This document shows, one piece after another, positions 2,657-28,377 of a stretch of 29,205 bases of DNA (its first letter is position 1; the number at the start of each line of letters is the position of its first letter). The DNA is from a bacterium (GTDB lineage: Bacteria > Krumholzibacteriota > Krumholzibacteriia > LZORAL124-64-63), in the NCBI GenBank assembly GCA_003353795.1, contig PIVY01000046.1, positions 1 to 29,205 of the forward strand, written 5' to 3'. The notes beneath the pieces were generated by a model that saw only the letters and a program-made list of their open reading frames with translations, did not search any database and was not told the origin of the DNA. Position numbers and translations under genes: made by a program.

Positions 2657-4558
2657 ATGATGGATCGCGGAACCGGACCGGGCGATCCCGAACCCCGGGA
2701 CATCGGCCACGATATCTTCCAGGCCATGTTCGAGGCTTCGCCCCACGGCGTTTTCGTCTCCGATCGTGACGGACGCTATCTCCTGGTGAACGAAGCGGGG
2801 CGCCGGATCACGGGGTACTCCCACCAGGAACTCCTATCTCGTGGCATCCGTGACATGATACCCGAGGACGCCGCCCAGCTCGCCGCCGAGCACTTCGAGC
2901 GCGTCGTGGACACCGGACGCTCCTCGGGTGAGTTGCCGTTTCTGCGCCGCGACGGCACCCGCGGCTGGGTCTCCGTGGAAGCCGTTCGGATCTCGCCCGA
3001 CCGCATGCTCGGATTCGTCACCGACGTGACAGCGCGGCATGCCTTGCGTGAGAAGCTCGAGCTCAACGAGAATCGCCTGGCACGCGCCCAGGACATCGCC
3101 AAGGTGGGTTGGTTCGAGTTCGATCTCGCCGCCGGCACCGTGCGGGCGTCGAGCCAGGCCCGGACGATCTACGGTCTGGATACCGATCGCGAGTTCACCG
3201 TCGCCGAAGCGCAGCAGATTCCGTTGCCCGAGTACCGCTCGAACCTCGACCAGGCCCTCGCCGATCTGATCCGGCACGGCCGACCCTACGACGTCACCTT
3301 CCGCGTCCACCGCGTGTCCGACGGCAAGGAGGCCACCATCCATTCGGTGGCCGAGTACGATCGCGACCGGAACGTCGTGTTCGGCATGATCCAGGACATC
3401 AGCGAGGTCCGCGAACTGGAGGACATGCTGCGCCAGGCTCAGAAGATGGAAGCAGTCGGACGCCTGGCCGGAGGCGTGGCCCACGATTTCAACAACCTGC
3501 TCACACCGATCATCGGCTTCGCGGAGATGCTCCGGGACGGACTCGATGAGGACGATGAACGATTCAGCGACGTGGTCACCATTCTGCGCGCCGCCGAACG
3601 GGCGCGAGATCTCACGGCGCAGTTGCTGGCCTTCGGGCGCAAGCAGCTCCTGGACATGCAGGTGATCGACGTCAACGCGGTCATCGTCGAGAGCGAACCC
3701 ATGTTGAGGCGACTGCTACGGGAGAACGTTCGCCTCGATCTGAATCTCTCGGCGGCACTGGGCGCCGTGCAGGCCGACGTGTCGCAGCTGAACACGGTCA
3801 TGATCAACCTGGCGGTCAATGCGGCCGACGCCATGCCCGACGGCGGCGTCCTGCGGATCGAGACTCACGATGTGGAACTGGACGACGAGTACGCCCAGGC
3901 GCACCCCGGCAGTCGCCCGGGCCGGCACGTGATGGTGGCCGTGAGCGACGACGGTGCCGGCATGGACGTGGAGACCCTGGCCATGATCTTCGAGCCCTTC
4001 TTCACCACCAAGGGCGCCGATCAGGGCACGGGACTCGGGCTGGCCACCGTGCACGGTATCGTCAAGCAGCACGGCGGCAGCATCTGGGTCTACAGCGAGC
4101 CGGGCCGGGGCACGACGTTCAAGGTCTACCTGCCCATGGTCGCCGCCGAACCGGCGGCCGTGGAGATCGCGGCGGTTCCGATCCAGTTGCGGGGCGACGA
4201 GCGGATCCTGCTCGTGGAAGACGACGAATCGGTGCGCGCGCTCACCGAGGTGGTGCTTCAGCGCTACGGATACGAGGTGGTGGCGATGGGATCTCCCGCG
4301 GGCGCCGTGGAGTTGCTCACGGGCGACGTGAAGCCGTTCGACCTTCTGCTCACCGACGTGGTCATGCCCGGAATGAACGGCGTCCAGCTGCATCGGACAT
4401 TGCAGGGGGTCTGGCCGGATCTGCCGGCCATCTTCATGTCCGGCTACACCGACAACGTGGTGGCACACCACGGCATCCTGAGCCAAGGGCTGCACTTCAT
4501 CCAGAAGCCGTTCATGCCGACGGATCTGGTCCGCTGCGTCCGCGAGGTTCTCGACTAG
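2657..4558 (+). CDS. Hybrid sensor histidine kinase/response regulator with two PAS domains (PAS-PAS-HisKA-HATPase_c-REC)
   Basis: 633 aa. H-box GGVAHDFNNLLTPI. G-box GTGLGLATVHGIVKQHGGSIWVYSEPGRGTTFKVYLP. C-terminal receiver RILLVEDDESVR...LLLTDVVMPGMNG...IFMSGYTD. GC3-rich codons throughout. Confidence 0.92.
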   Translation: MMDRGTGPGDPEPRDIGHDIFQAMFEASPHGVFVSDRDGRYLLVNEAGRRITGYSHQELLSRGIRDMIPEDAAQLAAEHFERVVDTGRSSGELPFLRRDGTRGWVSVEAVRISPDRMLGFVTDVTARHALREKLELNENRLARAQDIAKVGWFEFDLAAGTVRASSQARTIYGLDTDREFTVAEAQQIPLPEYRSNLDQALADLIRHGRPYDVTFRVHRVSDGKEATIHSVAEYDRDRNVVFGMIQDISEVRELEDMLRQAQKMEAVGRLAGGVAHDFNNLLTPIIGFAEMLRDGLDEDDERFSDVVTILRAAERARDLTAQLLAFGRKQLLDMQVIDVNAVIVESEPMLRRLLRENVRLDLNLSAALGAVQADVSQLNTVMINLAVNAADAMPDGGVLRIETHDVELDDEYAQAHPGSRPGRHVMVAVSDDGAGMDVETLAMIFEPFFTTKGADQGTGLGLATVHGIVKQHGGSIWVYSEPGRGTTFKVYLPMVAAEPAAVEIAAVPIQLRGDERILLVEDDESVRALTEVVLQRYGYEVVAMGSPAGAVELLTGDVKPFDLLLTDVVMPGMNGVQLHRTLQGVWPDLPAIFMSGYTDNVVAHHGILSQGLHFIQKPFMPTDLVRCVREVLD

Positions 4559-5133: not shown

Positions 5134-7560
5134 TCAGGCGGCGGCGAGCCGCTGTTCGTCGCGGCGGTTGCGGAGTTTCTGGCTTCCGTAGACCGCTGCG
5201 ACCAGGACGATACCCAGGGCGTCGGTGATGAAGCCGGGCCAGAAAAGTAAGACCGTGGCCGCGGCGAGCAACAACCATTCGGCCCAGTTGGTTTCCCGGA
5301 TCAGATAGAGCATGGTCAGCGCCGAGAAGGCCATGGTGCCGAGGAAGGCCGAGAAGAGTGACTGGAACGACATCAGTGGCGTGGCGCTGGTCTCGGCGAC
5401 CACCCGGCCGGAGTCGATGAAGGTGCCACCGGAAACGGTCAGATTCTTGATGACGCCGTCGCGGTTCGCGGTGATGTCCTTGAACTCCTCGCCGTCCATC
5501 ACCGTGGCGATGCGGTCGCCTTCCTTGACGCTCGCGCCGGGCGCCACATGGACCTCGGTGACCATGGCCCCCATGATCTCGTCCTGGAACGTGGGTGCCA
5601 ATAACGGCTGGCCCTCGAAGAGGATCGCCGGGGTGAAGGCGAACAGGATGGGCATCACGTAGAGCAGCTTGGCGAACTTGAATGCCGTCCAGCCGGTCTT
5701 CCAGGGATCGCTGCCCGCGATGGCGGCGCCGGCGTACGCGGCCACGCAGACCGGTGGGGTGATGTTGGAGTCCTGGCTGAACCAGTAGACGATCATGTGC
5801 GCGGCGATGAGCACCACGCCCATTTCCATGAGCGGCGGCACGGCCAGGACGGCGGTGATCAGGTAGGCTGCCGTCACCGGTACGCCCATGCCCAGCACCA
5901 GCGAGGCCAGGCCCACCAGCAGGATCGCCGGCAGCAGGTGTCCGCCGGCCAGCGAGATGATGATGTCGGAGAACTTGAGGCCGATGCCGGTGAGCGAAAT
6001 GGTGCCCACGATGATGCCGATCACGCCGAGGGTGGCGCCGATGATGAGCGTATTGCGGGCGCCGGTCTGGATGGCTTCCCAGATCTCCCTGGGACCCATG
6101 CGGGTCTCCTTCTTGACCCAGCTCACGGCGATGCACGAGAGCGTGGCCCAGAAGGCGCTGTAGCCGGGCGACTTGCCATTGATCATGAGCACCGTGATGA
6201 TCACCAGCGGCATGACGAAGTACCACTGCTCCTTGAGGACCGCGGTCCAGTGCGGCGCGTCGGGATCCTGGATCCCCTCGATCTTGTGCTTCTTGGCCTC
6301 GAAATGGATCATGCAGAAGACCGAGAAGAAGTAGAGCAGAGCCGGACCGATGGCGATGAGCATGATGTGGGAATAGGGCGTCTCGGTGAGTTCGGCCATG
6401 AGGAAGCCGCCCGCGCCCATGATCGGTGGCATGAACATGCCGCCGATGGAGGCCGAGGGCTCGATGGCGCCGGCCACGTGGGGGCGGAATCCCGCCCGTT
6501 TCATGAGCGGGATGGTGAAGGCGCCGGTGGAGACCGTGTTGGCGATGGCCGAACCGGACACCGAGCCGAAGAGCGCCGAGGCCATGACCGCGACCTTGGC
6601 CGGGCCGCCGGTGGTCTTGCCCGCGAGGGCCATGGGAACGTCGATGAAGAACCGGCCGGCGCCCGATTTCTGCAGGAAGGCGCCAAAGAAGATGAACAGG
6701 ATCACGTAGGTCGCCAGCACGTTGGCCATGACCCCGAACACGCCGTTGGTCGTGAGGTAGAGCGCGGTGCAAAGGCGCTCGACGCCGAAGCCGCGATGGG
6801 AGATGACCTCCGGCATGTAGGGTCCGAAATAGGCGTAGCAGAGCATGCTGATGCCGATGAAGGTCATGGCCCAGCCGAGCACCCGGCGGCAGACCTCGAG
6901 GCTCAGGACGATGCCGACGACGCTCACCAGGGCGTCGAGTTCGTTCTCTGCGCCGGCGCGGTAATTGAGGTTCTCGAACTCGAAGATCCAGTAGGCCACG
7001 ACCCAGGCCGAGATCAAGGCGAGCAGAAGGTCGGAGAAGCTGGGGTACTCGGGGTACTTGCGCTCGGCCCAGCGATCGGCGTAGACGAGAACGGCGCCGA
7101 CGATCACCGCTCCGAGCCCGAGCCACCAGAGGCTCATGGCGTCGGCCAGTCCGGCACCGGCACCCTGCTCTGCCCAGACGCCACTCACCCGGGTCACGCG
7201 GTCATGAAACGTGGTGGCGTCGGGGAAGAAGAACCAGGCGGCCACCGCACTGGTGGTGACCGCGCCCACGAAGAGATTCAACGGGTACCGGAGCCAGTTC
7301 TTGCCCACCGGATAGAGCAGGAAGATCAAGATGAAGGTGATGAACACGTACACGCCGCGGTGGAACTGCGTGGCCACCGACGCCACGCCGGCGGTGTAGA
7401 AGTAGAACACCACCATGGCTCCAGCGAGACCGGCAATCAGGGCGTGCCACAATCCCTTGGGGGTGCGGGTGGTCTTGTTGTCCTTCTCGATGATCTGTTC
7501 GAGCTTCTTCTTGTCACCCGAGGACCCTGGTTCCGGGGCGGAAATGTCGCTGCTGGCCAT
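5134..7560 (-). CDS. TRAP transporter fused permease (TAXI-type 4TM/12TM fusion, DctQM-like), with a C-terminal soluble beta-rich insert
   Basis: 808 aa and highly hydrophobic multi-TM. GGAGA SD 5 nt upstream. The off-frame 802-aa ORF 4718..7126- is Arg/Pro-rich junk. Residues ~668-725 (TEVHVAPGASVKEGDRIATVMDGEEFKDITANRDGVIKNLTVSGGTFIDSGRVVAE) look like a biotinyl/lipoyl-type hammerhead barrel. Confidence 0.9.
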   Translation of the reverse strand: MASSDISAPEPGSSGDKKKLEQIIEKDNKTTRTPKGLWHALIAGLAGAMVVFYFYTAGVASVATQFHRGVYVFITFILIFLLYPVGKNWLRYPLNLFVGAVTTSAVAAWFFFPDATTFHDRVTRVSGVWAEQGAGAGLADAMSLWWLGLGAVIVGAVLVYADRWAERKYPEYPSFSDLLLALISAWVVAYWIFEFENLNYRAGAENELDALVSVVGIVLSLEVCRRVLGWAMTFIGISMLCYAYFGPYMPEVISHRGFGVERLCTALYLTTNGVFGVMANVLATYVILFIFFGAFLQKSGAGRFFIDVPMALAGKTTGGPAKVAVMASALFGSVSGSAIANTVSTGAFTIPLMKRAGFRPHVAGAIEPSASIGGMFMPPIMGAGGFLMAELTETPYSHIMLIAIGPALLYFFSVFCMIHFEAKKHKIEGIQDPDAPHWTAVLKEQWYFVMPLVIITVLMINGKSPGYSAFWATLSCIAVSWVKKETRMGPREIWEAIQTGARNTLIIGATLGVIGIIVGTISLTGIGLKFSDIIISLAGGHLLPAILLVGLASLVLGMGVPVTAAYLITAVLAVPPLMEMGVVLIAAHMIVYWFSQDSNITPPVCVAAYAGAAIAGSDPWKTGWTAFKFAKLLYVMPILFAFTPAILFEGQPLLAPTFQDEIMGAMVTEVHVAPGASVKEGDRIATVMDGEEFKDITANRDGVIKNLTVSGGTFIDSGRVVAETSATPLMSFQSLFSAFLGTMAFSALTMLYLIRETNWAEWLLLAAATVLLFWPGFITDALGIVLVAAVYGSQKLRNRRDEQRLAAA

Positions 7561-8880: not shown

Positions 8881-11001
8881 ATGCGAACTCTGACCCTGAT
8901 CGTGACGACCATGGCCCTACTGTCCCTGGCCGGCTGTGCCGGCGATCCCGCTCCCCCGACCGCCAAACAGATTCCGCACGAGTTGACGGCCCATGGCCAG
9001 ACCCGTGTCGACGAGTACTACTGGCTGCGCGAGCGGGACAATCCCGACGTGGTTCGATACCTGGAAGACGAGAACGCCTATCTCCAGCAGGTGATGGCCC
9101 CCACGGAGGCGCTCCAGGACGAACTCTTCGAGGAAATGATCGGGCGGATCGAACCCGATGACGCCTCGGTCCCGCGGTTTTCGCGAGGCTACTGGTACTA
9201 CACGCGCTATGTCGAAGGTGGGGAGTATGCCCTCCATTGCCGGCGCGAAGGGACCATGGAGGCGCCGGAAGAGGTGATGCTCGACGGCAACCAACTCGCG
9301 TCCGGCGAGGGTTATTTCGCCCTCAGCGGCGTGCGGGTCGCCAGCGACAACCGCACCGTGGCATACGCCGTCGACACCGTCGGTCGGCGCAAGTACACCT
9401 GGCGATTCCGCGACCTCGCCACCGGCCAGGACCTGCCTGACAGGATTCCGGACATGACTCCCCGAGCGGTCTGGGCTGAAGACGGGCGGACTCTCTTCTA
9501 CGTCCGCCAGGACCCCGAGACCCTCCGCAGCTACCAGGTCTGGCGACACGAACTGGGGCAGGATCCGGCCAACGCTGTTCTGGTCTTCGAGGAGACCGAC
9601 GACACCTTCAGCGTCGGTGTCGGCAAGAGCAAGAGCCGGCGCTATCTGCTGATTCGCTCGTCTCAGACCATTGCCGACGAGGTCCGATACCTGCTGGCCG
9701 ACCAGCCCGCCGGACAGTGGCGAGTGTTCCAGCCACGGGAGCGTGGCCTCGAGTATTCGGTCGATCATATCGACGACCGGTTCGTGGTGCGGACGAATCT
9801 GGAAGCCGAGAACTTCCGGCTGGTCGCGTGCGGCCAAGACTGGACCGGCAAAGAGGGCTGGCAGGATCTGGTGCCCCACGATCCCGAGGTGCTGGTGACG
9901 GGATTCGAGTTGTACCGCGATTTCCTGGTCGTCCAGGAACGTCGAGGCGGCCTGGCTCATCTGCGCATCAAGCCCTGGCACGACACCGGCGAGCACGACC
10001 TCGAATTCGGCGAGGCCACCTACAGCGCCTGGATCATCGGCTCGCCGGAACTGGACACGACCACTCTGCGGTACGGATTCAGTTCCCTCACCACCCCGCG
10101 GTCGGTCATCGACTACGACATGAATTCCCGCACGCGGGTGGTGATGAAGCAGGACAAGGTGCTCGGGGAGTTCGACCCGCAGTGGTACCAGGCCGAGTAC
10201 ATCCGCGCCACGGCACCGGACGGTACCGAGGTCCCCGTCTCGCTGGTCTATCGGAAGGATCTCTTCGCGCGAGGCGAGAATCCCTGCCTGGTCTACGGCT
10301 ACGGCTCCTACGGCTCCAGTTCGAGCGCCGGATTCCGCAGCTGGCGGCTGAGCCTGCTCGATCGCGGCTTCGTGTTCGCCATCGCTCATGTGCGAGGTGG
10401 CCAGGAAATGGGCCGCCACTGGTACGAGGACGGCAAGCTGCTCCGGAAGATGAACACGTTCACGGACTTCATCGCCTGTGGCGAGCACCTGATCGACGCC
10501 GGGTACTCCGATCCGGATCGGATCTACGCCATGGGCGGCAGCGCGGGCGGCCTTCTGGTTGGCGCGGTGGTCAATCTGGCGCCGGACCTCTGGCACGGCG
10601 CCGTGGCGGACGTGCCGTTCGTGGACGTGGTCACCACCATGCTGGACGATTCTATCCCACTGACCACCGGCGAGTATGACGAGTGGGGCAATCCCCACGA
10701 GCAGGTCTATCATGACTACATGCTGGCCTACTCGCCTTACGACCAGGTGGAAGCCAAGAATTATCCCAACTTGCTGGTCACCGCCGGCTTCCACGATTCG
10801 CAGGTCCAGTACTTCGAACCTGCCAAGTGGGTCGCGCGGTTGCGAAACCGCAAGACCGATGAGAACCTGTTGCTTCTGCATACGAACATGGAGGCGGGCC
10901 ACGGCGGGCAGTCGGGCCGCTTCCGGCGCTACCGGGAAACCGCGCTGGAGTGCGCGTTCCTGCTTACCCTGGCTGATTCCCAGCGAGAGGACACACCGTG
11001 A
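8881..11001 (+). CDS. ptrB: S9A serine peptidase lipoprotein (oligopeptidase B / prolyl oligopeptidase family)
   Basis: 706 aa. Lipobox LSLAGC. N-terminal beta-propeller region. Catalytic serine in GGSAGGLLVG. C-terminal HD...H region. The antisense 661-aa ORF 8917..10902- is a shadow. Confidence 0.9.
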   Translation: MRTLTLIVTTMALLSLAGCAGDPAPPTAKQIPHELTAHGQTRVDEYYWLRERDNPDVVRYLEDENAYLQQVMAPTEALQDELFEEMIGRIEPDDASVPRFSRGYWYYTRYVEGGEYALHCRREGTMEAPEEVMLDGNQLASGEGYFALSGVRVASDNRTVAYAVDTVGRRKYTWRFRDLATGQDLPDRIPDMTPRAVWAEDGRTLFYVRQDPETLRSYQVWRHELGQDPANAVLVFEETDDTFSVGVGKSKSRRYLLIRSSQTIADEVRYLLADQPAGQWRVFQPRERGLEYSVDHIDDRFVVRTNLEAENFRLVACGQDWTGKEGWQDLVPHDPEVLVTGFELYRDFLVVQERRGGLAHLRIKPWHDTGEHDLEFGEATYSAWIIGSPELDTTTLRYGFSSLTTPRSVIDYDMNSRTRVVMKQDKVLGEFDPQWYQAEYIRATAPDGTEVPVSLVYRKDLFARGENPCLVYGYGSYGSSSSAGFRSWRLSLLDRGFVFAIAHVRGGQEMGRHWYEDGKLLRKMNTFTDFIACGEHLIDAGYSDPDRIYAMGGSAGGLLVGAVVNLAPDLWHGAVADVPFVDVVTTMLDDSIPLTTGEYDEWGNPHEQVYHDYMLAYSPYDQVEAKNYPNLLVTAGFHDSQVQYFEPAKWVARLRNRKTDENLLLLHTNMEAGHGGQSGRFRRYRETALECAFLLTLADSQREDTP

Positions 11002-12290: not shown

Positions 12291-13382
12291 CTAGAAATCG
12301 ACGCCCAGTCCGTAAGCCATGGTCACGTCGTCACTTTTGGGCGTGATTCCTTCGGCATTCGTCTTGGGATTGGAGTTGTGGTCCCAGGTGACGGAGGCCG
12401 TGAAGTCGATGATGTCGCCCAGGATGTCGAAGGAAAGCATGAAATAGCTGTGGTGCAACGTGGTTTCGTCCGTGCCGAGAGTGCGGCGGATGCTGTATTC
12501 GGTGTCCAGCTCGATGTTCTTGGTCAGGTCCATTTCCAGCGTCGTACCCAGGGTGATAGTGCCATTGTTGACGGTGAGGTCCTCGCCCTCGCCAACCGAG
12601 ATATAGGTCGTCTTCTGGTAACCGCCGCTGGCGTTGATCTGCCAGTCGGTCTTGCTGCGAATGAGGTAGTAACCGAAACCGGCACTGAGGCCCGATCTCA
12701 GGTCGATGTTCTGGAATTCGTCGTTGAACAGATCCACGGCCAGCGGTGTGACGAAGAGCTGGCGCGAGAGGAACCAGTTGGCATCGACGTCGACGCGGCT
12801 GTTGGCCACCGTGCTCTCCCCGTCGGTGGAACCGTAATTGCCGCGGTACTCGGCGTTGAACTGGCTCCGGGTGGTCTGGCGCCGTAGCCGCAGAAATGAC
12901 GTGAAGTCGTTTTGCTCGGTATTGCCGGTGCGGGCGACGAGATTCGCAGTGGCCTTCAGCGACCAGTAATTGAGTTCGGTGGGTCGGCCCTCGATGATGG
13001 CGAGGACCTGGCTGGCCGAGTATTCCTCAACGCCCACTCCGGTGCGAATCCTCATGATCCCGTCGCTCATGGCGACCGTTCCCGACACGACCTTGCCACC
13101 GATCATGCCAACGGTGAGAATCCGCGCCGAGCGGATCTCAGCGACGTCTTCCCAGTCGAACTCGAGATCGTCCATCTCCTCGCTATCGAAGTACATCTTC
13201 TCGTACTGGAGCAACTCGATGGCTCCGCGGACCCACTCGCCGGACGACAATCGGACCCAGTCCTTGGATTCCGGCTTGGGTGTCGGAGGTTCCCAGTCGG
13301 CGGCGGAGGGCGCTGCGGGATACGCTGCCCAGGTGGCGCCGATCAGGAGGATGGCGAGGCCTATGCGCGTCGTGATCGACAT
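12291..13382 (-). CDS. DUF481-family (YdiY-like) outer-membrane beta-barrel protein
   Basis: I reset the start to the ATG at 13382 (MSITTRIGLAILLIGATWAAYPAAPSAA signal) with GGGAG 8 nt upstream. The C-terminal half has DUF481-like motifs (NTEQNDFTSFLRLRRQTTRSQFNAEYRGNYG). It ends in ...GLGVDF, the terminal Phe being typical of OMPs. Confidence 0.7.
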   Translation of the reverse strand: MSITTRIGLAILLIGATWAAYPAAPSAADWEPPTPKPESKDWVRLSSGEWVRGAIELLQYEKMYFDSEEMDDLEFDWEDVAEIRSARILTVGMIGGKVVSGTVAMSDGIMRIRTGVGVEEYSASQVLAIIEGRPTELNYWSLKATANLVARTGNTEQNDFTSFLRLRRQTTRSQFNAEYRGNYGSTDGESTVANSRVDVDANWFLSRQLFVTPLAVDLFNDEFQNIDLRSGLSAGFGYYLIRSKTDWQINASGGYQKTTYISVGEGEDLTVNNGTITLGTTLEMDLTKNIELDTEYSIRRTLGTDETTLHHSYFMLSFDILGDIIDFTASVTWDHNSNPKTNAEGITPKSDDVTMAYGLGVDF

Positions 13383-19133: not shown

Positions 19134-19490
19134 ATGAAGGCAAACGATCTCGACGAGGTCCTGGGAATCCCCGCTCGGTTGGCCATCGTGGCGACCTTGA
19201 TGCCGGGACGGCAGCTGTCGTTCACCACACTTGGCGAGCAGACAGGAATCGCCGCCGGCAACCTGCACGTGCAGACGCGGAAACTCGTGGACGCGGGCTA
19301 CATCGTTGCCGAGCGGGGCAGGCAGGGTGGACGGGGCGTCACCCGATTCGAGATCACCGAACGCGGGAGGCTCCGATACCAGGAGCACGTGCGGAACCTG
19401 CGAGACGCCATCGAGGGACCTTTCGGGGTGGCTCGCGCGGCCACGGATTCCGGGCCGGTACGGCCGGGCGACCCCTCGAGGGTCTGGTAA
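19134..19490 (+). CDS. Winged-helix transcriptional regulator (HTH_34/ArsR-like wHTH)
   Basis: 118 aa. [48 protein letters not shown]...RFEITERGR matches the winged-helix DNA-binding (HTH_34) consensus. It is the first gene of the BMC operon. Confidence 0.8.
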
Positions 19491-19506
19491 TCATGCGAGG
19501 ATCGAG

Positions 19507-20805
19507 ATGATGATCGCCATTGGCGCAGATCACGGCGGATTCGAGCTCAAGCAGAAGCTGTTGAAGCACTTGCAGGGTCGGGGCCACCAGGTTCAGGACG
19601 TGGGGACCGGCTCCACCGATGCCGTCGACTACCCCGTCTTCGCCCGCAAGGTGGCCGAGGCCGTGGCCTCGGGAGCGGCCGAGCGAGGCATCATGATCGA
19701 CGGCGCCGGCATCGGCTCGTCCATGGTGGCCAACAAGGTGCCGGGCGTGCGCGCGGCCATGGCCTACGACGTGTCCAGCGCCCGCAACGGCCGCGAGCAC
19801 AACGACGCCAACCTGCTCACCCTGGGCGCGGGGCTCATCGGGGCCAACCTGGCCGCCCAGATCGTGGACGTGTTTCTGAATACAGTATGCAGCGAATCGC
19901 GCCACCAGCGCCGTGTGGCCATGATCGAGTCCGCCCCGACCGGCGGCGGCGCCACTCTCGGCATCTCGGACGCCGATTTCGCACGGGTCATCCAGCGGCT
20001 CGAATCCCTGACCGGCGATCGTGCTGGCCAGGCGGGTCCCTGCGTGGGCAGTTGCCCGGACACCGCCCGTCATTTCATCGGCCTCGGCGCCCGCCGCCTC
20101 ACCACTGGCCCCGGCAGCCCCGGCCGCATTCCCGAGGAACTGGCCCGCTACATCGACCACACCATTCTCAAGCCCGACGCCACCATCGAGATGATCGACA
20201 CCATCATCGCCGAGGCGCGCGAGCACGGTTTCCGTTCGGTCTGCGTGAACCCCTGCTGGGTGAAACGCGTGGCCGACGGCCTGCGCGGAACACGTGTGTT
20301 GACCTGCTCGGTGGTGGGATTTCCTCTCGGCGCCAGCGTCCCCGAGATGAAGGGCATGGAATCCCGCCGCGCCATTCGCGACGGGGCCAAGGAGATTGAC
20401 ATGGTCATCAACGTCGGTCGTCTCAAGGCCGGCGACGACGCCTACGTGCTGCGCGACATCATGGCCGTGACCGACGCCTGCCGCGACGGCAGTGCCGTGA
20501 GCAAGGTCATCATCGAGACCGCGCTGTTGACCGACGAGGAGAAGGTGCGCGCCTGTGAGCTGTCCAAGCGCGCGCGGGCCAACTTCGTGAAGACGTCCAC
20601 CGGATTCGCCTCGTCGGGCGCCACGGCCGAGGACATCGCGCTGATGGCCGGCATGGTGCATCCGGCCGGCATGGAAGTGAAGGCGTCCGGAGGCATCCGC
20701 ACCTTCGACGACGCCCGCCGCATGATCGACGCCGGCGCCACCCGTATCGGCGCCAGCGCCAGCATCGCCATCGTGGAAGAGGCCCAGAAGACTGCGAAAG
20801 TTTGA
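19507..20805 (+). CDS. Fusion enzyme: ribose-5-phosphate isomerase B (RpiB/LacAB) domain + linker + deoxyribose-phosphate aldolase (DeoC)
   Basis: I reset the start to ATGATG at 19507, with GAGGA 5 nt upstream and right after the regulator stop. The track ORF from 19231 overlaps the regulator out of frame. The RpiB domain runs [15 protein letters not shown]...GGG...RHQRRV. The DeoC domain has [23 protein letters not shown], the Schiff-base FVKTSTGF and VKASGGIRT. Confidence 0.9.
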
Positions 20806-20815
20806 GGGGACGAGC

Positions 20816-21436
20816 ATGGTCGACCTGAGAGCCTACTGCGTAATCGACAGCCTGCAGCCCCAGTTCGCCTCGTTCCAGGCGACCGTGGCCCAGGGGTTCC
20901 TGCCCAAGGTGGGGCAGGCCAGCCTGTTCGTGGAGATCGCACCGGGCATCGAGATCAACCGGGTCATGGACGTGGCGCTCAAATCCACGTCGGTGACACC
21001 GGGCATGCAGATCGTCGAGCGGCACTTCGGCATGCTCGAGGTGCACTCCGACAGTCAGGCCGAGGTACGGCAGGCGGGCATCTCCATCCTCGAGGCCCTT
21101 GAGCTCAAGGAGGAGGAGCGCCTCAAGCCGCGCATCGTCTCGGATCAGGTGGTGCGACATCTCGACGACCACCAGTGCATGCTCATCAACCGCATGCGCC
21201 ACGGCAACCTGATCCTCAGCGGCGAGACGCTCTTCATCCTGGAGTGCGAACCGGCCGCGTACGCCGCGCTGGCAGCCAACGAGGCCGAGAAGGCCGCGCA
21301 CATCAACATCCTCGAGGTCCGTTCGTTCGGAAGCTTCGGGCGCGTGTACATCGGCGGCGAGGAAAAAGACGTGGAAGTGGCCCGACCGGCGGCGGTCGCG
21401 GCCCTGGATTCCCTGAACGGTAGAACGATCAAGTAA
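20816..21436 (+). CDS. Tandem BMC-domain shell protein (BMC-T, pseudohexamer/trimer type)
   Basis: 206 aa. The second half ([28 protein letters not shown]...[23 protein letters not shown]) aligns position-by-position with the canonical BMC fold ([26 protein letters not shown]...GDVxAVxAA). The first half ([23 protein letters not shown]...[17 protein letters not shown]) is a diverged copy. GAGGGGA SD. Confidence 0.7.
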
Positions 21437-21450
21437 CAGGAGGAACGGCA

Positions 21451-21741
21451 ATGGCAGACGCTCTGGGTATGATCGAGTGCCGGTGTTTTTCGGCCACGGT
21501 GGAGGCCGCCGACGCCATGGTGAAGGCCGCTCGCGTGGATCTGGTGGGCTACGAGAAGACCGGTGGCGGCTACACCACCGCCATCGTGCGGGGCGACGTG
21601 GCCGCGGTGAAGGCCGCCTGCGAGGCCGGCCAGAACGCCGCCACCCGCGTGGGTGAAGTGGTGGCCGTGCACGTGATCGCGCGTCCACACTCCAACGTGG
21701 ACGCGGTGATCCCGTTGGGTCGCCAGACCGCCGAGGCGTAG
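21451..21741 (+). CDS. BMC-H hexameric shell protein (PduA/EutM/CcmK type)
   Basis: [57 protein letters not shown]...[17 protein letters not shown]. Confidence 0.95.
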
Positions 21742-21745
21742 ACCC

Positions 21746-22042
21746 ATGCTACTGGCACGGGTGCTGGGCCGGGTGGTGGCCACGCGCAAGGACGAGAAGC
21801 TCGAGGGCCTCAAGCTGCTCATGCTGGGCGTGGCGGGCCCCGACGGCAAGCTCACCGGCGCGAGCCTGGTCGCCGTCGATGCCGTGGGCGCGGGCGAGGG
21901 CGAGTACGTTCTCTATGCCGCGGGCTCGTCGGCGCGTCAGACCACCGTCACCGACCAGAAACCGGTGGACGCGGTCATCATGGCCATCGTGGACAGCTGG
22001 GACATCGAGGGCACCGAGAAGTACCGCAAGGGTAACGAGTGA
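21746..22042 (+). CDS. BMC-P pentameric vertex protein (EutN/CcmL/PduN family), copy 1
   Basis: MLLARVLGRVVATRKDEKLEGLKLLML...AVDAVGAGEGEYVLY. The stop overlaps the aldehyde dehydrogenase start (ATGA). Confidence 0.9.
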   Translation: MLLARVLGRVVATRKDEKLEGLKLLMLGVAGPDGKLTGASLVAVDAVGAGEGEYVLYAAGSSARQTTVTDQKPVDAVIMAIVDSWDIEGTEKYRKGNE

Positions 22043-23541
22043 TGGCGCGGCTCACCGACGCGCAGGTCGATCACATCGCCCGGGAACTCGCGGGGCGTCT
22101 CGGGGTTAGCGGTAAGTCGAACACATGGACCGACAAGACGATTACGGCGGCGATCAGGCCGGTCGCGGTGGCTTCTCCGGGCACCGCACCGGCCGCCGCT
22201 GTATCTGAACCCGGAAGCGGCGGCGTCTTCGCCACCATCGACGAGTGCGTGGCCGCTGCGCGAACCGCCTTCGAGGAACTGCGGGGCATGTCCCTGCAGA
22301 AACGCGCCGAGATCATCGCCGCCTACCGCGCCGCCATGCTGCGCGAGGCCGAGAGCCTGGCGCGCGAGGCGGTGCAGGAGACCCGGCTCGGTCGCGTCGA
22401 GCACAAGGTGATCAAGAACCGACTCGTGACCGAGGCCACGCCGGGCACCGAGATCCTGGTACCCAACGCCGCGAGCGGCGACGACGGACTGACGCTCATG
22501 GAGTGGGCGCCGTTCGGGGTGATCGGCGCCATCACGCCGACGACCAATCCCACCAGCACGATCATCTGCAACACCATCGGCATGGTGGCCGCGGGCAACA
22601 GCGTGGTCTTCAACGCGCACCCCAGCGCCAAGCGGTGTTCGCTGTCGACGGTGCGCCACCTGAACGCCGCCGCCGAGTCGGTGGGCGGGCCGCCCAACCT
22701 GGCGTGCGCGGTGGCCGAACCCACCATCGAGACCGCCACGGCGCTCATGCACCACAAGGGAATCAACCTGCTCGTGGTCACCGGCGGACCCGGCGTGGTG
22801 AAGGCCGCCATGAACAGCGGCAAGCGCGCGGTGTGCGCGGGTCCAGGCAATCCGCCGGTAGTGGTGGACGACACGGCCGATCTCGAGCGTGCGGGTCGTG
22901 ACATCGTGCATGGCGCCGGATTCGACAACAACGTCATCTGCGTGGACGAGAAGCAGGTATTCGTCACGGCGACGGCGGCGGATAAACTCCTCGATTCCAT
23001 GCGCGCGGCCGGGGCGTACGTCGCTTCATCCGATGAAGTCAGGCGCCTGGAGAAGCACATCTTCCAGGAGATCCGCGGCCCGCGCACCCACGGCGTGATC
23101 AACAAGCAGTTCGTGGGCAAGAACGCCGGGGTGATCCTGGCGGCGGCGGGCATCAAGACGGCCGGCGACGTTCCGCTCGTCGTGGCCGACGTGTCGGAGG
23201 ACCATCCGCTGGTCTGGAGCGAACAGCTCATGCCCGTGCTGCCGGTAGTGCGGGTGTCGCACGTGGCGCGGGGGATCAAGCTGGCGAAGGAGTCGGAGCA
23301 CGGGTTCGGGCATTCGGCCAGCATGCACTCCCACGACATCCAGGCCCTGAGCACCATGGCCCGCGAGATCAACACCAGCATCTTCGTCAAGAACGGGCCC
23401 ATCGTGGCGGGTCTCGCGGCCGGCGGCGAGGGCTTCACCAGCTTCACCATCGCCAGCCCCACCGGTGAGGGCATGACCTCGCCGCTCAGCTTCTCGCGGC
23501 AACGGCGGTGCGTGATGGTCGACCACTTCCGGATCGTGTAA
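22039..23541 (+). CDS. CoA-acylating aldehyde dehydrogenase (PduP/EutE-like) with an N-terminal encapsulation peptide and a Pro/Ala-rich linker
   Basis: 500 aa. N-terminal amphipathic helix LTDAQVDHIARELAGRL, then a ~45-aa A/P/G/S/T-rich linker. The ALDH core carries the catalytic Cys in GFDNNVICVDEKQ. The antisense ORFs 22323..23867- and 23026..24312- are shadows. Confidence 0.9.
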   Translation: MMARLTDAQVDHIARELAGRLGVSGKSNTWTDKTITAAIRPVAVASPGTAPAAAVSEPGSGGVFATIDECVAAARTAFEELRGMSLQKRAEIIAAYRAAMLREAESLAREAVQETRLGRVEHKVIKNRLVTEATPGTEILVPNAASGDDGLTLMEWAPFGVIGAITPTTNPTSTIICNTIGMVAAGNSVVFNAHPSAKRCSLSTVRHLNAAAESVGGPPNLACAVAEPTIETATALMHHKGINLLVVTGGPGVVKAAMNSGKRAVCAGPGNPPVVVDDTADLERAGRDIVHGAGFDNNVICVDEKQVFVTATAADKLLDSMRAAGAYVASSDEVRRLEKHIFQEIRGPRTHGVINKQFVGKNAGVILAAAGIKTAGDVPLVVADVSEDHPLVWSEQLMPVLPVVRVSHVARGIKLAKESEHGFGHSASMHSHDIQALSTMAREINTSIFVKNGPIVAGLAAGGEGFTSFTIASPTGEGMTSPLSFSRQRRCVMVDHFRIV

Positions 23542-23545
23542 CAGC

Positions 23546-24163
23546 ATGCAACAGGCACTGGCACTCCTCGAGTTCTCGGGCGCGGTGGCGGGCATCGCCG
23601 CCGTGGACCGCATGCTGAAAATGTCGCCCGTGGCGCTGCTGCGCTGCGGGACCGTGCATCCGGGTCGGTACCTGGTGCTGGTGGGCGGCTCGGTGGCGGC
23701 CACCGAGGAGGCGCACGCGGCAGCGGTGGCCGTGGGGTGCGAACTCGGCGCGTTGCATGACGAGGTCTGCCTGCCGGATCCGCATCCGCAACTGGCGGCC
23801 GCAGTCGGCGGAGATCGGCGCGCCGCCGAGGGTGAGGCGCTGGGCGTGATGGAGATCGCGACGTCACCGGGAATGCTTCGGGCGGTGGACGTCGCGCTCA
23901 AGGCGGTGCCGGTGGACCTGGTGGAGGTCCGGCTGGCCGATGATCTGGGCGGTCGCGCGCTGGCGGTGATCAGCGGCTCGCTCACCGACGTGCAGGAAGC
24001 GCTGGACATGGCTCGCGACCGTGGTGGCGAGACGGCCGGTTGGCTGGGTGGGACGGTGCTGCCGCGCCTCGACGACACCCTGCGCGACGTGCTGGGCGAG
24101 GGCACGAGTTTCCAGGCCTGCCGCTCGTGGGAACCCGCGGGCGCCGAGACGGTGGAGGAGTAG
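23546..24163 (+). CDS. Tandem BMC-domain shell protein, PduT-like (BMC-T)
   Basis: Two canonical BMC domains: ALALLEFSGAVAGIAAVDRMLKMSPVALL...GRYLVLVGGSVAATEEAHAAAV and ALGVMEIATSPGMLRAVDVALKAVPVDLVEV...GRALAVISGSLTDVQEALDMA. Confidence 0.85.
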   Translation: MQQALALLEFSGAVAGIAAVDRMLKMSPVALLRCGTVHPGRYLVLVGGSVAATEEAHAAAVAVGCELGALHDEVCLPDPHPQLAAAVGGDRRAAEGEALGVMEIATSPGMLRAVDVALKAVPVDLVEVRLADDLGGRALAVISGSLTDVQEALDMARDRGGETAGWLGGTVLPRLDDTLRDVLGEGTSFQACRSWEPAGAETVEE

Positions 24164-24166
24164 CGC

Positions 24167-24475
24167 ATGTTCCTTGGCCGCGTGATCGGAAGACTGGTGC
24201 CGGCGGTGGTGACCGCGGGCATGGAGGGGATCCCCCTCTTGTGGGTGCAGCCGCTGGACAAGTTCGGTGAGCCCGACGGGCTGGCATTCGTCTGCGCCGA
24301 TGGCACGCGCATGGCCGGGCCGGGCGAAACTGTCTACTGGGAAGCGAGTCGCGAGGCGGCGCTCACGCTGGAGCCGAGCTTCGTGCCGGTGGACCACGCG
24401 GTGGTGGGGATCGTGGACGACGTGCGGCTGGACGAGGTCGCCAAGCCGAAGCGGCGCAGGAGGAAGAAATCATGA
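24167..24475 (+). CDS. BMC-P pentameric vertex protein, copy 2, with a poly-basic C-terminal tail
   Basis: MFLGRVIGRLVPAVVTAGMEGIPLLWVQPLD... EutN/CcmL fold. Ends ...KPKRRRRKKS. Confidence 0.85.
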   Translation: MFLGRVIGRLVPAVVTAGMEGIPLLWVQPLDKFGEPDGLAFVCADGTRMAGPGETVYWEASREAALTLEPSFVPVDHAVVGIVDDVRLDEVAKPKRRRRKKS

Positions 24476-24735
24476 TCCTCGCGCGCGTCTGCGGCAGCCT
24501 CGTGTCGACCATCCATCACGACAGTATGAATGGGCGGAAGCTGCTGGTGCTCGACAAGCTTGATCAGGACGGTGAGCCGACTGGGGGGTATGTGATCGCC
24601 GTGGATACCGTGGGGGCCGGCGCCGGCGAGACCGTGATCATGCTGGACGAGGGGAACGGGGCGCGGCAGATCCTCGGCGAAGCGGATCTGCCGGTGCGGT
24701 CGGTGGTGGTGGGGATCGTGGATGAGGTGGGCTAG
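24472..24735 (+). CDS. BMC-P pentameric vertex protein, copy 3
   Basis: MILARVCGSLVSTIHHDSMNGRKLLVLDKLD...VIAVDTVGAGAGETVIMLDEG. Its start overlaps the copy-2 stop (ATGA). Confidence 0.85.
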   Translation: MILARVCGSLVSTIHHDSMNGRKLLVLDKLDQDGEPTGGYVIAVDTVGAGAGETVIMLDEGNGARQILGEADLPVRSVVVGIVDEVG

Positions 24736-24811
24736 CTCTGGCGTCCTCTACTTACCCGGCCTCCGACCTGCATGAAACTCCCACACGCGACAGAATCTCT
24801 TGCGGGATGAG

Positions 24812-24881
24812 CTCATCTCAACACCTCCGGGCTACACATAAGTAGCCTTTTCGAGATGTCGGAAAAAGGCAGGCAAGTCCA
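24812..24881. repeat. Left copy of a ~68-bp imperfect inverted repeat pair (partner at 28227..28294)
   Basis: The reverse complement of 24812-24881 matches 28227-28294 with 2 mismatches and 1 single-base indel over ~68 bp (TGGACTTGCCTGCC-TTTTCCGACATCTCGAAAAGG-CTTATGTGTAGCC-GGAGGTGTTGAGATGA). I aligned it by hand. Confidence 0.8.
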
Positions 24882-24933
24882 GACCCGGGTACTCGCGGGG
24901 TAACGAAACCGGGGGCCGCAGGGCCTCGATCGC

Positions 24934-25596
24934 CTAGTTCGCCGCCTGCGCTTCGGTCAGCCCGAACAGATCGAACGGCGGCTGCGCGAAGTTCTCGTGG
25001 AAGAGCACCGCGACCAGCACGACATAGCCGACGAAGGCCAGAATGATCACCGCCTGCACCGGCGACGTCTTCTGGATCTCCTGGCGCGATTTCACATCGC
25101 AAACCTCTCCCGGACAGTACTGGGCCTTGTCCCGGTAGATCAGCGAGTAGACCTTGCAGCCGATGCAGATCCCGAACGACGTCTCGAAGAAGAGGAAAAC
25201 CAGGCAGATCAGGCAGATCAATCCGGTAATGGGGCTGAACGAATTCACGACCACCTGCAGCGCGAACATGACCGTCGCCAGCACGATCCCGATGATCCAG
25301 GCAAACTTCTTCTGCTGGGCGCCGACGTATTCGGGGGTCTGGTTGCGCACGATCCAGCGACCCATGATCAGCGAGGGCGCATAGCGCGGATTGATCAGGA
25401 CCCGGATCAGGATGTCGGTCAGGAAGATGGTGACCGCGTACTTCAGCAGCGTGAAATCGCTCTTCATGATGGCCATCAGTATGGCGACGAACATCACGAC
25501 GAAGAGGATGCCGGCACCGGCGCGGATCTCGCGCTCGTTCAGGACGGGGATCTCGAAACCCGGTACCGTTTCGCCGAATTGAATGACCTTGCCCAT
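24934..25596 (-). CDS. Integral membrane protein, DUF4395-like (4 TM, conserved Cys pairs)
   Basis: 220 aa. N-terminus MGKVIQFGETVPGFEIPVLNEREIRAGAG, then hydrophobic helices. CIGC and CPGEVC motifs. GC somewhat lower than the window average. Confidence 0.65.
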   Translation of the reverse strand: MGKVIQFGETVPGFEIPVLNEREIRAGAGILFVVMFVAILMAIMKSDFTLLKYAVTIFLTDILIRVLINPRYAPSLIMGRWIVRNQTPEYVGAQQKKFAWIIGIVLATVMFALQVVVNSFSPITGLICLICLVFLFFETSFGICIGCKVYSLIYRDKAQYCPGEVCDVKSRQEIQKTSPVQAVIILAFVGYVVLVAVLFHENFAQPPFDLFGLTEAQAAN

Positions 25597-25741
25597 GAAC
25601 GACTACCGCCTTGTTGGGAGGTTGCTTCTGCGCCGACGGGCGTTTCCGCGTCGCGGACCAGAGCCGGCTGAATCGTGACACACTCGAACCGTGGGAATCT
25701 AGTACGCCGAGTCGCATTCGGCTCGTGAACAGCGACGGTTA

Positions 25742-26137
25742 ATGAAAATTTACGATTGCCAGGAGGCACGTGAGAAATTGCGGCTGCCTGAGGCCGAAAC
25801 AGCCGGCGCGGTCGACGCCGACGAACCCGGATCCTCGGTCGGCCGCCTCGCCGCCCATTGCTGGGCCCTGCTCCTGGCGCGGATCTACGAGTGCCTGCCG
25901 CTCGCGTGTCCGCGGTGCGGCGAGCCGATGCGGATCATCGCGTTCATCCTGGACCGGTCACAGGTCGAGCGGATCCTGACGCACATCGGGGAGCCCGCGG
26001 AGGCGCCGGAGGTCCTGCCGGCGAGAGGGCCGCCGCAAGTGGAGCTGGAGTTCGGCCAGGTGGACCAGACAGCCGGTCAGGATGCCTGGCCGGAGATGGA
26101 TCAGACGGCCGGCGACGGTGGCGACATCGGGGGATAA
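25742..26137 (+). pseudogene. Remnant of an IS91-family (rolling-circle Y2 transposase) gene: only the C-terminal zinc-binding tail is recognisable
   Basis: RLAAHCWALLLARIYECLPLACPRCGEPMRIIAFILDRSQVERILTHIGEPAEAP matches the characteristic IS91/IS801/ISCR transposase C-terminus (RLSWAALLKRVFGIDVL-CPxCGGxMRxIAxIxDP-VIxKILxHLGLP). No HUH/Y2 catalytic region precedes it, and there is an in-frame stop at 25700. Confidence 0.55.
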
Positions 26138-26497
26138 ATTTCCCATCATTCACGAGGCTCTCGAAAGAGCCGGACCGACGGGTCTGCGTGCTCGGGCGTC
26201 AAACTGATTGGTGGAGGCCGGATCTCGGCGATTCGCGGAGTGTCGGACGCATCTCGGAGGCCGCCGAATTGACCATGGTGAGTCGCCAGTGGTAGAATCG
26301 GGGTCGGACTGGGCAGCGGGAGGCGGGACTGTACGGTTGAAATGCCAATCCTCCTTGGCTCCACCAAACAGTACCCGACGGGTTATGCCAATGGCGTAAT
26401 CCGTTGTTTTTAAGGTGGGGGTCGACGACGCAACGGTTTTCCCCATTGAACCATGTACTGATCAAGTGGTATCGTTTGGATTTCGACTGGGGGAGCT

Positions 26498-28225
26498 ATG
26501 CAATACCGCTTCGGATTCTTATCCATTCTGATGGTCGTTTTCGTTGTCTTCGTCGCGGCCACCGGTTGCGACGATGGCGACGAGGCTCAAGATGGTGGGT
26601 TGATTGAACCTCCTGATCCGCCAGAGATCGTTCCCGGTGAGTTGGATCTCGAGTACGTCTGGTCAGGTCAAGGGGTCGACCTTCGCTGGTCCGCCTGGAC
26701 CGGCGACGAGGTGACTGGATACAGGGTCTACACCCAGCTCCTGAATTTTCCGCCCGTCTTGCGTGCGCTCACCGACGAAACATGGTTCATCGATCTGATG
26801 CCGATGGCGGGAGACCGGTATACGGCGACGGTGCAAGCGGTCGATGGCGACGACGTTGTGCTCGCGGAAACGTCGGAATTCACGTGGTCGATTCCGGGCA
26901 ACTACAAACGAGCGTCTCTGACGATCGCCAATGGAGACGAGTTCACAGACTCGCGCGCGGTTATGGTCCTCGTCGAGGTACCGTCAGACAGCATGTGGAT
27001 GTGGAACGGCCTTCCGGAGAACTCCGTCGGTGGTCGGTGGGAGGAGTTGCGTCACCATAGCGCGAGAATCCTCGATTGGCCGCTTGCGTTGCTCGACGAG
27101 CCAAAGGTCGTCACTGCTCGCTATCGGTCCAGCCTGGGACTGTTGCACGAGGTTTCCGACGACATCGCCGTTCAGCCTTTCAATCCGAACATTCGGTGTG
27201 ACGCTCCGGGGTTCGTCGCGGAACCGGTCGTCGATCTCTTGTTCGACGATCCGGCTGCACGATACGTCCGTGTGGCAAATACCGTGAACGAGCTGGGCCA
27301 AGCTCCCTGGCGCATCTTCGCCGATCGGCTGGAAGACTGGAATCTGCCGGACGACCCGGAACCTCACACAGTCAAAGTGCAGATGCGGAACGAATTCGAA
27401 CTTGTGTCCGGCGTCTATGAATCGACTCCCGTTCAACTGGATCTGGATCCTCCCGACCTATCCAACTTGTCAATGCAGCCGGTGGATGGCGCCGATGGAA
27501 TCGATGCCACATTGTCGCTCGCTTGGTCGGGAGCGAGTGACGCGCTGTCTGGTGTGCACGAGGTTGCCGTCTACTGTGATCGCGGCGGCCCGGCAACGAC
27601 GCTTGTGTATGATGGATCCGACGGCGGCTTTCAATTAGAGAATCTCATAGCCAACGAGGAGTATCGCTGGCGCCTGGAATTTCGCGACCTGGTCGGAAAT
27701 GTCGCCAGCGGGGACGAACAGTCATTCACTACGGGCGGCCACTTCGACCTGGTCACACTCAGTTTCGACCCAGAGGGTGAGCAGGTGGAAGCGCCGTCGA
27801 ATGTTGCCGGTGCGACGGGTACGATGTACCTGACGTGGCGCCACCCTAGCGTATCGACGCTCGGTACGGCTCTGGTACGGATCGTTCCGCCGGAGGGTGT
27901 TGGGCTGGTGTTTCACCCGCGTGATGGCTTCGAAGCAATCAATGGGGAAGGGCCAGACATCTATTTTATGTTTGGATCCTATGAGTTCGGAGATGCCAGT
28001 AGCATCTTACTGGCGGAACTCGAATACCAAGTCTATCAGGATGGCGCGACTGGCCCTGTTCGTGTAGGCCCCGCTGGTCCGCCCGACGAGTCCGGGGCGC
28101 CATTCCCGAATGTTCAGCCGCACATGACTTGGGGAGAATTCATCCATCTCGGCTATCCGCTGCGGCGGTCAGCGACGGACCCGGAGGAACTCACCGGAAT
28201 CGTGTGGTTCGGACCAGCGCCGTGA
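26498..28225 (+). CDS. Secreted lipoprotein with fibronectin-type-III-like domains, function unknown
   Basis: 575 aa. Signal/lipobox MQYRFGFLSILMVVFVVFVAATGC. FN3-like segments (VDLRWSAWTGDEVTGYRVYT; LSLAWSGASDALSGVHEVAVYCDRGG...EEYRWRLEFRDLVGNVASGDEQSFTT). Noticeably lower GC and more A/T-ending codons than neighbouring genes. Confidence 0.75.
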   Translation: MQYRFGFLSILMVVFVVFVAATGCDDGDEAQDGGLIEPPDPPEIVPGELDLEYVWSGQGVDLRWSAWTGDEVTGYRVYTQLLNFPPVLRALTDETWFIDLMPMAGDRYTATVQAVDGDDVVLAETSEFTWSIPGNYKRASLTIANGDEFTDSRAVMVLVEVPSDSMWMWNGLPENSVGGRWEELRHHSARILDWPLALLDEPKVVTARYRSSLGLLHEVSDDIAVQPFNPNIRCDAPGFVAEPVVDLLFDDPAARYVRVANTVNELGQAPWRIFADRLEDWNLPDDPEPHTVKVQMRNEFELVSGVYESTPVQLDLDPPDLSNLSMQPVDGADGIDATLSLAWSGASDALSGVHEVAVYCDRGGPATTLVYDGSDGGFQLENLIANEEYRWRLEFRDLVGNVASGDEQSFTTGGHFDLVTLSFDPEGEQVEAPSNVAGATGTMYLTWRHPSVSTLGTALVRIVPPEGVGLVFHPRDGFEAINGEGPDIYFMFGSYEFGDASSILLAELEYQVYQDGATGPVRVGPAGPPDESGAPFPNVQPHMTWGEFIHLGYPLRRSATDPEELTGIVWFGPAP

Positions 28226-28226
28226 T

Positions 28227-28294
28227 TGGACTTGCCTGCCATTTTCCGACATCTCGAAAAGGCACTTATGTGTAGCCTGGAGGTGTTGAGATGA
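28227..28294. repeat. Right copy of the ~68-bp inverted repeat pair (partner at 24812..24881)
   Basis: See the left copy. This copy carries GGAGGTGTTGAGATG in the sense orientation for a 25-codon upstream ORF. Confidence 0.8.
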
Positions 28295-28377
28295 ACCCGC
28301 CGGCCGAAATCCCGGACGTCGCCGCGAAAGTCGAGGCCGTCCGGTTCGGTAGGCAACCGGGAACATGAGGTGAAACC

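Follow-up and report, generated by a model that had tools for sequence, protein, structure and literature searches.

The window analysed here is the whole of contig PIVY01000046.1 (29,205 nucleotides), from a bacterial metagenome-assembled genome (MAG; GCA_003353795.1). Directly downstream of a microcompartment operon, it carries two copies of a repeat of about 68 bp in inverted orientation, which bracket a segment of 3.35 kb. A preliminary description, made from these letters alone, had hesitated between relic terminal repeats, copies of a dispersed element and recombination sites. Comparison with other genomes and metagenomes indicates that each copy is very probably the truncated left end of an insertion sequence (IS) of the IS3 family, lying in intergenic DNA. 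The two remnants, called relics A and B below, are arranged as follows, IS positions being counted along an intact copy at another locus, L013.

24736 to 24782, no strand: outer junction of relic A, 47 bp from the last EutN stop codon (24735) to the break of relic A, presumably a deletion junction
24748 to 24816, minus strand: stub open reading frame (ORF) of relic A, 22 codons
24783 to 24881, minus strand: relic A, IS positions 1 to 99, as aligned by blastn with L013
24814 to 24816, minus strand: orfA ATG of relic A
24824 to 24828, minus strand: GGAGG of relic A
24855 to 24881, minus strand: left inverted repeat of relic A, TG tip at 24881
24882 to 28226, no strand: bracketed segment, 3345 bp between the inward-facing tips, not IS sequence
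28227 to 28306, plus strand: relic B, IS positions 1 to 68 (28227 to 28294) followed by about 12 nt of a variant type
28227 to 28253, plus strand: left inverted repeat of relic B, TG tip at 28227
28279 to 28283, plus strand: GGAGG of relic B
28291 to 28293, plus strand: ATG of relic B
28307 to 28377, plus strand: outer flank of relic B, 71 bp up to the next ATG (28378)

The inverted repeat pair itself is real. Aligned with MAFFT, the reverse complement of 24813-24881 (69 nt) and 28227-28294 (68 nt) differ by two substitutions and one 1-nt indel, as first described; they are about 96% identical, with a longest unbroken identity of 22 bp. For each of two sub-patterns, of 22 nt and 30 nt, the window contained exactly two occurrences; 100 shuffled sequences gave no match. 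The start had been placed one base too far out: position 24812 does not pair with 28295, so that the repeat begins at 24813. The similarity ends inward at TGGACTTGCC and outward at ...GGAGGTGTTGAGATGA, and the flanks of the two copies are mutually unrelated in both directions, in keeping with the initial statement that the repeats do not extend further. In the outward direction, away from the bracketed segment, each copy opens with TGGACTTGCC and closes with GGAGGTGTTGAGATGA, that is, with a ribosome-binding site and then an ATG. Both copies had also been described as lying at convergent gene ends, which holds for copy A only; copy B sits between two co-directional genes, the first of which, encoding a lipoprotein, stops at 28225, the next starting at 28378. 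A sigma-70 promoter scan found no promoter-like site within either repeat, and Rfam at its gathering threshold gave no match in the window.

The same repeat was then found far outside this contig. A 19-mer taken from it, scanned through 185,579 species-representative genomes, hit 8 loci, five of which contained the whole 68-mer: three on separate contigs of one Candidatus (Ca.) Krumholzibacteriia MAG, one in a Fibrobacteraceae MAG and one in an unclassified bacterial MAG. A 21-mer scan of metagenomes added 22 further loci. Public genomes and metagenomes taken together, the same 68-mer is present at about 30 unrelated loci, which is what the preliminary description had named as the mark of a generic dispersed repeat. 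Nothing was found in viral contigs scanned with the right half of the repeat, the plasmid collection held no element with this left end, and the sole Rfam match in 20 related loci was an unrelated tRNA. Relatives retrieved through the similarity of their OrfB protein alone (73-79% identity; loci L031, L033 to L037, L040, L041 and L043) carry this left end immediately before orfA. The association of the 68-mer with an IS is thus independent of the DNA seed used for the search.

The complete reference copy of this IS lies at L013:1451-2702. It is 1252 bp long, with orfA and orfB in overlapping frames, and scores 323.5 bits against the NCBIfam model NF033516, “IS3 family transposase” (cut-off 160), positions 1-86 of the model being covered by orfA and 91-369 by orfB. 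Hallmarks of the IS3 family are an orfA encoding a helix-turn-helix (HTH) protein overlapping an orfB with a DDE/rve integrase core, a K or R seven residues after the catalytic E, an AnG slippery motif for −1 frameshifting, TG...CA repeats of 20-40 bp and a target-site duplication of 3-5 bp (PMC5771124). The source element resembles the family in its two overlapping frames, its catalytic residues and its terminal repeats. At L007 the ATG of the repeat is followed by MKTPRRRFTRELKLEAVRRVQ..., recognised as Pfam HTH_Tnp_1 (1.5e-13), and ORFs further on match the rve integrase core (Pfam rve_3/rve_2/rve); orfA and orfB gene calls in L031-L043 agree with the two-frame layout. The catalytic triad of the source IS is D132, D192 and E228 (D-60-D-36-E), with a K at E+7. 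Its ends are 27-bp imperfect terminal inverted repeats of the TG...CA type, left and right matching at 19-21 of the 27 positions in five elements. A 4-bp duplication, GACT, is found on both flanks of the L013 copy; matching flanks were not seen for L031, L033/L034, L040 and L041. In most copies a slippery run of eight A, CTAAAAAAAAC, lies at the orfA/orfB overlap (L020, L019, L015 and L026). The L013 copy reads CTTAAGAAGACG at this place, without the A run (region L013:1751-1850), and frameshifting in this otherwise intact copy, which does have a target duplication, may differ or be lost.

On the intact IS the 68-mer is made up of the following parts.

IS positions 1 to 27: left terminal inverted repeat
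IS positions about 21 to 63: leader stem-loop
IS positions 54 to 58: GGAGG, ribosome-binding site
IS positions 66 to 68: ATG of orfA
L013:1451-1525: leader, with window equivalents 24814-24861 and 28247-28293

Two blocks of the left repeat are conserved, TG..CTTGCC and TTTCCGACAT, and by analogy with the family these are where the transposase should bind and cleave (PMC5771124). In the longer family members, left-end positions not covered by the search seed are 79-96% identical; for orfA the figure is 65-81%. ISfinder divides the IS3 family into the groups IS3, IS51, IS150, IS407, IS2 and IS911. The annotated IS3 elements of plasmids match just 29% of the source IS, at about 66% nucleotide identity, and named IS3 transposases are about 45-51% identical to it in amino acids, or less. 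This is apparently an unnamed clade, and the collections searched contain no close relative with a name.

The leader of the intact IS is predicted to form a helix in which CCGACAUCUC (IS 21-29, overlapping the inner repeat block) pairs with GGAGGUGUUG (IS 55-63, the ribosome-binding site), enclosing a small hairpin (35-40/47-52). Single-sequence folding, RNAalifold on 22 sequences and a structure drawn by hand agree on this helix. In the alignment, 91% of cells form standard pairs, versus 34-57% when the partners are slid. Covariation is modest: one pair changes from GC to CG in three related sequences, and another is found as UG, CG and UA. At L033, where UC has become CU, wobble preserves both pairs, and at L043 a different 7-bp hairpin occupies the same place. 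Folds of single copies are unremarkable (z −0.8 to −1.7). The structure is specific to the orfA sense strand, because it includes G-U pairs. In IS10 and IS50, read-through transcripts fold back and hide the transposase start. The helix predicted here would likewise hide the ribosome-binding site, and would fit a translational damping of the transposase. It stands as a prediction, and its resemblance to IS10/IS50 fold-back inhibition concerns the likely mechanism, not family membership.

Mapped on the IS, the two substitutions between the window copies fall at positions 15 and 53 and the indel at position 38. In blastn alignments relic A is 96.5% identical to the L013 element over 85 nt, and 92.9% over 99 nt. 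Its homology runs 33 nt past position 66, into orfA, so that the first 11 codons or so are homologous (MSSSRKRFCR.. in the relic, MSPSRKRYSRE in L013). Relic B, whose TG tip lies 1 nt past the lipoprotein stop codon, is 92.8% identical to the L013 element over 69 nt. The 12 or so nucleotides that follow, up to 28306, resemble only a variant type represented by L011, L024 and L022:326-405, with which blastn alignments of 81 nt at 83-89% identity reach 28306. The two TG tips, 24881 and 28227, both face the 3.35-kb segment, with the orfA stubs directed away from it. The mutual identity of A and B (about 96%) is no higher than that of relic A with the metagenomic IS (96.5%).

Blastn and tblastn with the whole IS detected no further part of it in the window. 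Fuzzy matching, with up to 6 errors allowed, found no right inverted repeat outside A or B, and local alignment of five right-end or inverted-repeat queries with the 77-83 nt outside each copy stayed within background (p 0.05-0.66). Candidate right repeats about 130-140 bp outside the copies (near 24747-24775 and 28338-28365) were rejected, their scores not being above background, and a seeming TGA/TGAT duplication on either side of copy B was discarded on the same ground. No IS homology was detected in 24736-24782, whose only similarity to the fetched loci was one 16-nt match at chance level. In 28307-28377, blastn, fuzzy matching and background-scored alignment found neither IS homology nor a right inverted repeat. 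Relics A and B, with just 99 and about 80 nt of left end, are therefore fragments of an IS3-family member and not members, a member being defined by a transposase gene and both repeats.

We propose that two members of this family inserted, probably independently and in opposite orientations, in intergenic DNA downstream of the microcompartment operon, one of them 52 bp past the stop codon of a DUF4395 gene and the other 1 nt past that of the lipoprotein gene. Later deletions would have taken everything beyond about IS position 99 in A and about 68-80 in B, and with it the transposase gene and the right end of each copy. Since they have neither a transposase gene nor a second end, the relics cannot move and are most likely inert. 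The sharpness of a repeat at about 96% identity follows from the left end being the slowest-evolving part of the IS clade, and because the two relics differ in break point and in variant, two independent remnants suffice and no special mechanism is needed. Consistent with this reading, the contig falls near Ca. Krumholzibacteria, a lineage where the IS was found, judging by its Rho protein, which has 68-71% identity with proteins of that lineage. We see nothing substantive that sets the window copies apart from the solo IS ends and remnants of bacterial intergenic DNA: a terminal repeat with a few adjoining bases has outlived the transposase gene, in a rearranged, low-GC region beside an IS91/ISCR-like ORF. 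Of the possibilities first put forward, relic terminal repeats and dispersed repeat copies thus come together, the copies being relic left ends of a dispersed IS3-family IS; they do not mark the borders of a composite element, because their tips point inward. That the sequence is not a recognisable IS no longer stands once other genomes are compared, as the repeat is a recognisable part of one.

Several observations weigh against this explanation. Intact copies of the IS are known only from other genomes and metagenomes, not from the source organism, of whose genome this 29-kb contig alone was covered. There is no empty site for comparison: relatives at 81-82% Rho identity share no synteny with the window, and the four window proteins found in the protein collection are all singleton clusters at 90% identity, with no close relative. 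Target-site duplications cannot be checked at the relics, since the right ends are missing. Lastly, many other loci carry the left end alone, with breaks clustered at 37-38 and 63-68, which hints at more regularity than random decay.

The remaining features of the locus are listed below.

19231 to 24735, plus strand: microcompartment operon of the sugar-phosphate type, upstream of relic A
24167 to 24475 and 24472 to 24735, plus strand: consecutive EutN/CcmL genes, confirmed by Pfam
24934 to 25596, minus strand: DUF4395 gene (Pfam E=1.2e-25)
25742 to 26137, plus strand: IS91/ISCR-like transposase remnant (NCBIfam NF052416, E=3.7e-5, far below cut-off)
26138 to 26497: non-coding stretch, with a promoter-like site at 26269-26298 and a hairpin with a T run
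26498 to 28225, plus strand: lipoprotein gene, 575 aa, lipobox ..AATGC

The operon encodes a 524-aa RpiB-DeoC fusion, BMC-domain shell proteins, an aldehyde dehydrogenase and at least two EutN-family proteins. Within the segment, the DUF4395-like gene is as initially described. The IS91-family remnant also holds, as a weak match: its ORF aligns only with the C-terminal 72 residues or so of the IS91-like ISCR transposase model, and beyond it, tblastn of IS orfA and orfB returned nothing in the segment. The lipoprotein gene had been labelled FN3; the lipobox is present, but neither Pfam nor NCBIfam detected an FN3 domain, or any other, in the 575-aa product, whose only match among 5.8 billion clustered proteins was itself. 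Exact-sequence look-ups of window proteins returned no contigs. In keeping with the initial statement that the window has no intact transposase or recombinase, no domain of either was seen in the main ORFs, in a scan that was not exhaustive. GC content is about 0.59-0.61 from copy A onward, versus 0.67-0.70 in the microcompartment operon; the drop occurs at about 24.8 kb and the low GC persists past copy B to the contig end (24700-29205), so that it is not confined to the segment. The surroundings of the 3.35-kb segment are a patch of decayed, lower-GC mobile DNA bordering the microcompartment operon. A hairpin with a 14-bp stem followed by a T run (26376-26416), about 240 bp past the ISCR-like ORF, could be a terminator or an IS91-type end. 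Elsewhere in the window, an 808-aa ORF (5134-7560, minus strand) has a TRAP-transporter DctM domain together with a biotin/lipoyl-attachment domain at its C-terminus; the pairing is unusual and may be an artefact of how ORFs are called in GC-rich DNA.

The alternative that survives best is that A and B are not truncated at all, but complete non-autonomous derivatives resembling miniature inverted-repeat transposable elements (MITEs), mobilised by a full-length IS elsewhere in the genome. Like IS-derived MITEs, they are short, have no transposase and have a terminal repeat in common with an autonomous IS. The family does include derivatives with an internal deletion and both ends retained, of about 600 bp (L007), 255 bp (L004) and 173 bp (L021). 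In addition, there are three groups of loci in which the left end is fused to a shared non-IS sequence, suggesting mobile short forms, and copy B joins the third of these groups for about 12 nt. The solo left ends are the following.

L010:556-630, L014:758-832 and L029:845-919: solo left ends, first group
L016:1502-1576, L025:3894-3968 and L028:1849-1923: solo left ends, second group
L011:3893-3967, L024:610-684 and L022:326-405: solo left ends, third group
L009:4707-4781 and L018:2039-2113: solo left ends, likewise fused to shared non-IS sequence

Unlike MITEs, however, A and B have no detectable second terminal repeat, as neither fuzzy matching (6 errors or fewer) nor the alignments (all p ≥ 0.05) revealed one outside them, and no target-site duplication is evident, their outer flanks being mutually unrelated. 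We therefore consider it unlikely that they are complete elements of this kind. The solo left ends fused to shared sequences, cut at IS position 37-38 or 63-68, may themselves form distinct MITE-like families that have this terminal repeat in common. The left-end module is unusually well conserved, and such solo copies, joined to other repeats, turn up in several uncultured lineages. In the second group, L025 and L028 share 76% identity along 178 nt beyond the solo left end. At L021:559-633 the tip of the terminal repeat forms a near-perfect palindrome of 46 nt (TGGACTTGCCTGCCTTT...AAAAGGCAGGCAAGCCCA), with the 3′ end of orfB and a right repeat immediately behind it; this could be a minimal structure of two back-to-back ends, or one insertion nested within another.

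A broader and quite doubtful suggestion is that the left-end module, a transposase-binding repeat joined to a stem-loop that hides the ribosome-binding site, is a portable conserved unit that recurs alone, fused to unrelated repeats, across uncultured lineages. If this were true, copies such as B, which lies 84 nt upstream of the next gene and is co-directional with it, could be translational control leaders or new MITE families.

Part of the arrangement might alternatively be an artefact of assembly, the blocks before 24.8 kb, from 24.9 to 28.2 kb and after 28.3 kb being perhaps non-contiguous and joined through IS-end repeats. The window is an entire MAG contig, GC drops right at copy A and the repeats come from a multi-copy family. 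However, k-mers in common with other IS copies cannot produce the junctions of IS position 99 or 80, approximately, with non-IS DNA, which means that the truncated copies must be real, and the 22 or fewer identical bases in a row between A and B are too few to confuse a modern assembler. We judge this improbable.

Two inverted copies of the same IS family flanking a lower-GC segment that contains another transposase remnant could also be read as what is left of a composite transposon that once moved the 3.35-kb segment, or of an IS-mediated inversion that once flipped it. The geometry is wrong for this. It is the TG tips that border the segment, and the IS bodies would lie outside, so that the tips are not at the outer borders, and a transposase acting on these ends would mobilise the outside rather than the segment. 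The low GC, moreover, extends beyond it, and the origin of A and B from different variants argues against duplication in a single event, which together make this origin distinctly improbable. A metagenome contig, L025, carries three left-end copies, at 3894-3968 (plus strand), 9803-9843 (minus strand) and 13263-13311; the first two are inverted with tips outward and bracket about 5.95 kb, the orientation of a composite unit and the opposite of that in the window.

Finally, although the repeats are inverted and located at gene ends, it is extremely unlikely that they are inverton sites or substrates of RecA-mediated inversion: nothing supports the initial idea of a distant recombinase, as unrelated genomes have the sequence beside transposase genes, as an IS end, the non-exhaustive scan of the main ORFs revealed no recombinase, and 22 bp of unbroken identity is at or below the minimum for efficient homologous recombination, so that homologous inversion should be rare.

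The truncated IS3-family left ends thus explain an odd-looking repeat as ordinary mobile-element debris, and the biological weight of the finding is small. It has a practical use, since the reference copy of this IS clade (L013:1451-2702), its 27-bp terminal repeat and its conserved leader allow annotators to mask such fragments. The pairing predicted between the terminal repeat and the ribosome-binding site would, in addition, offer a small and testable example of translational control of a transposase.

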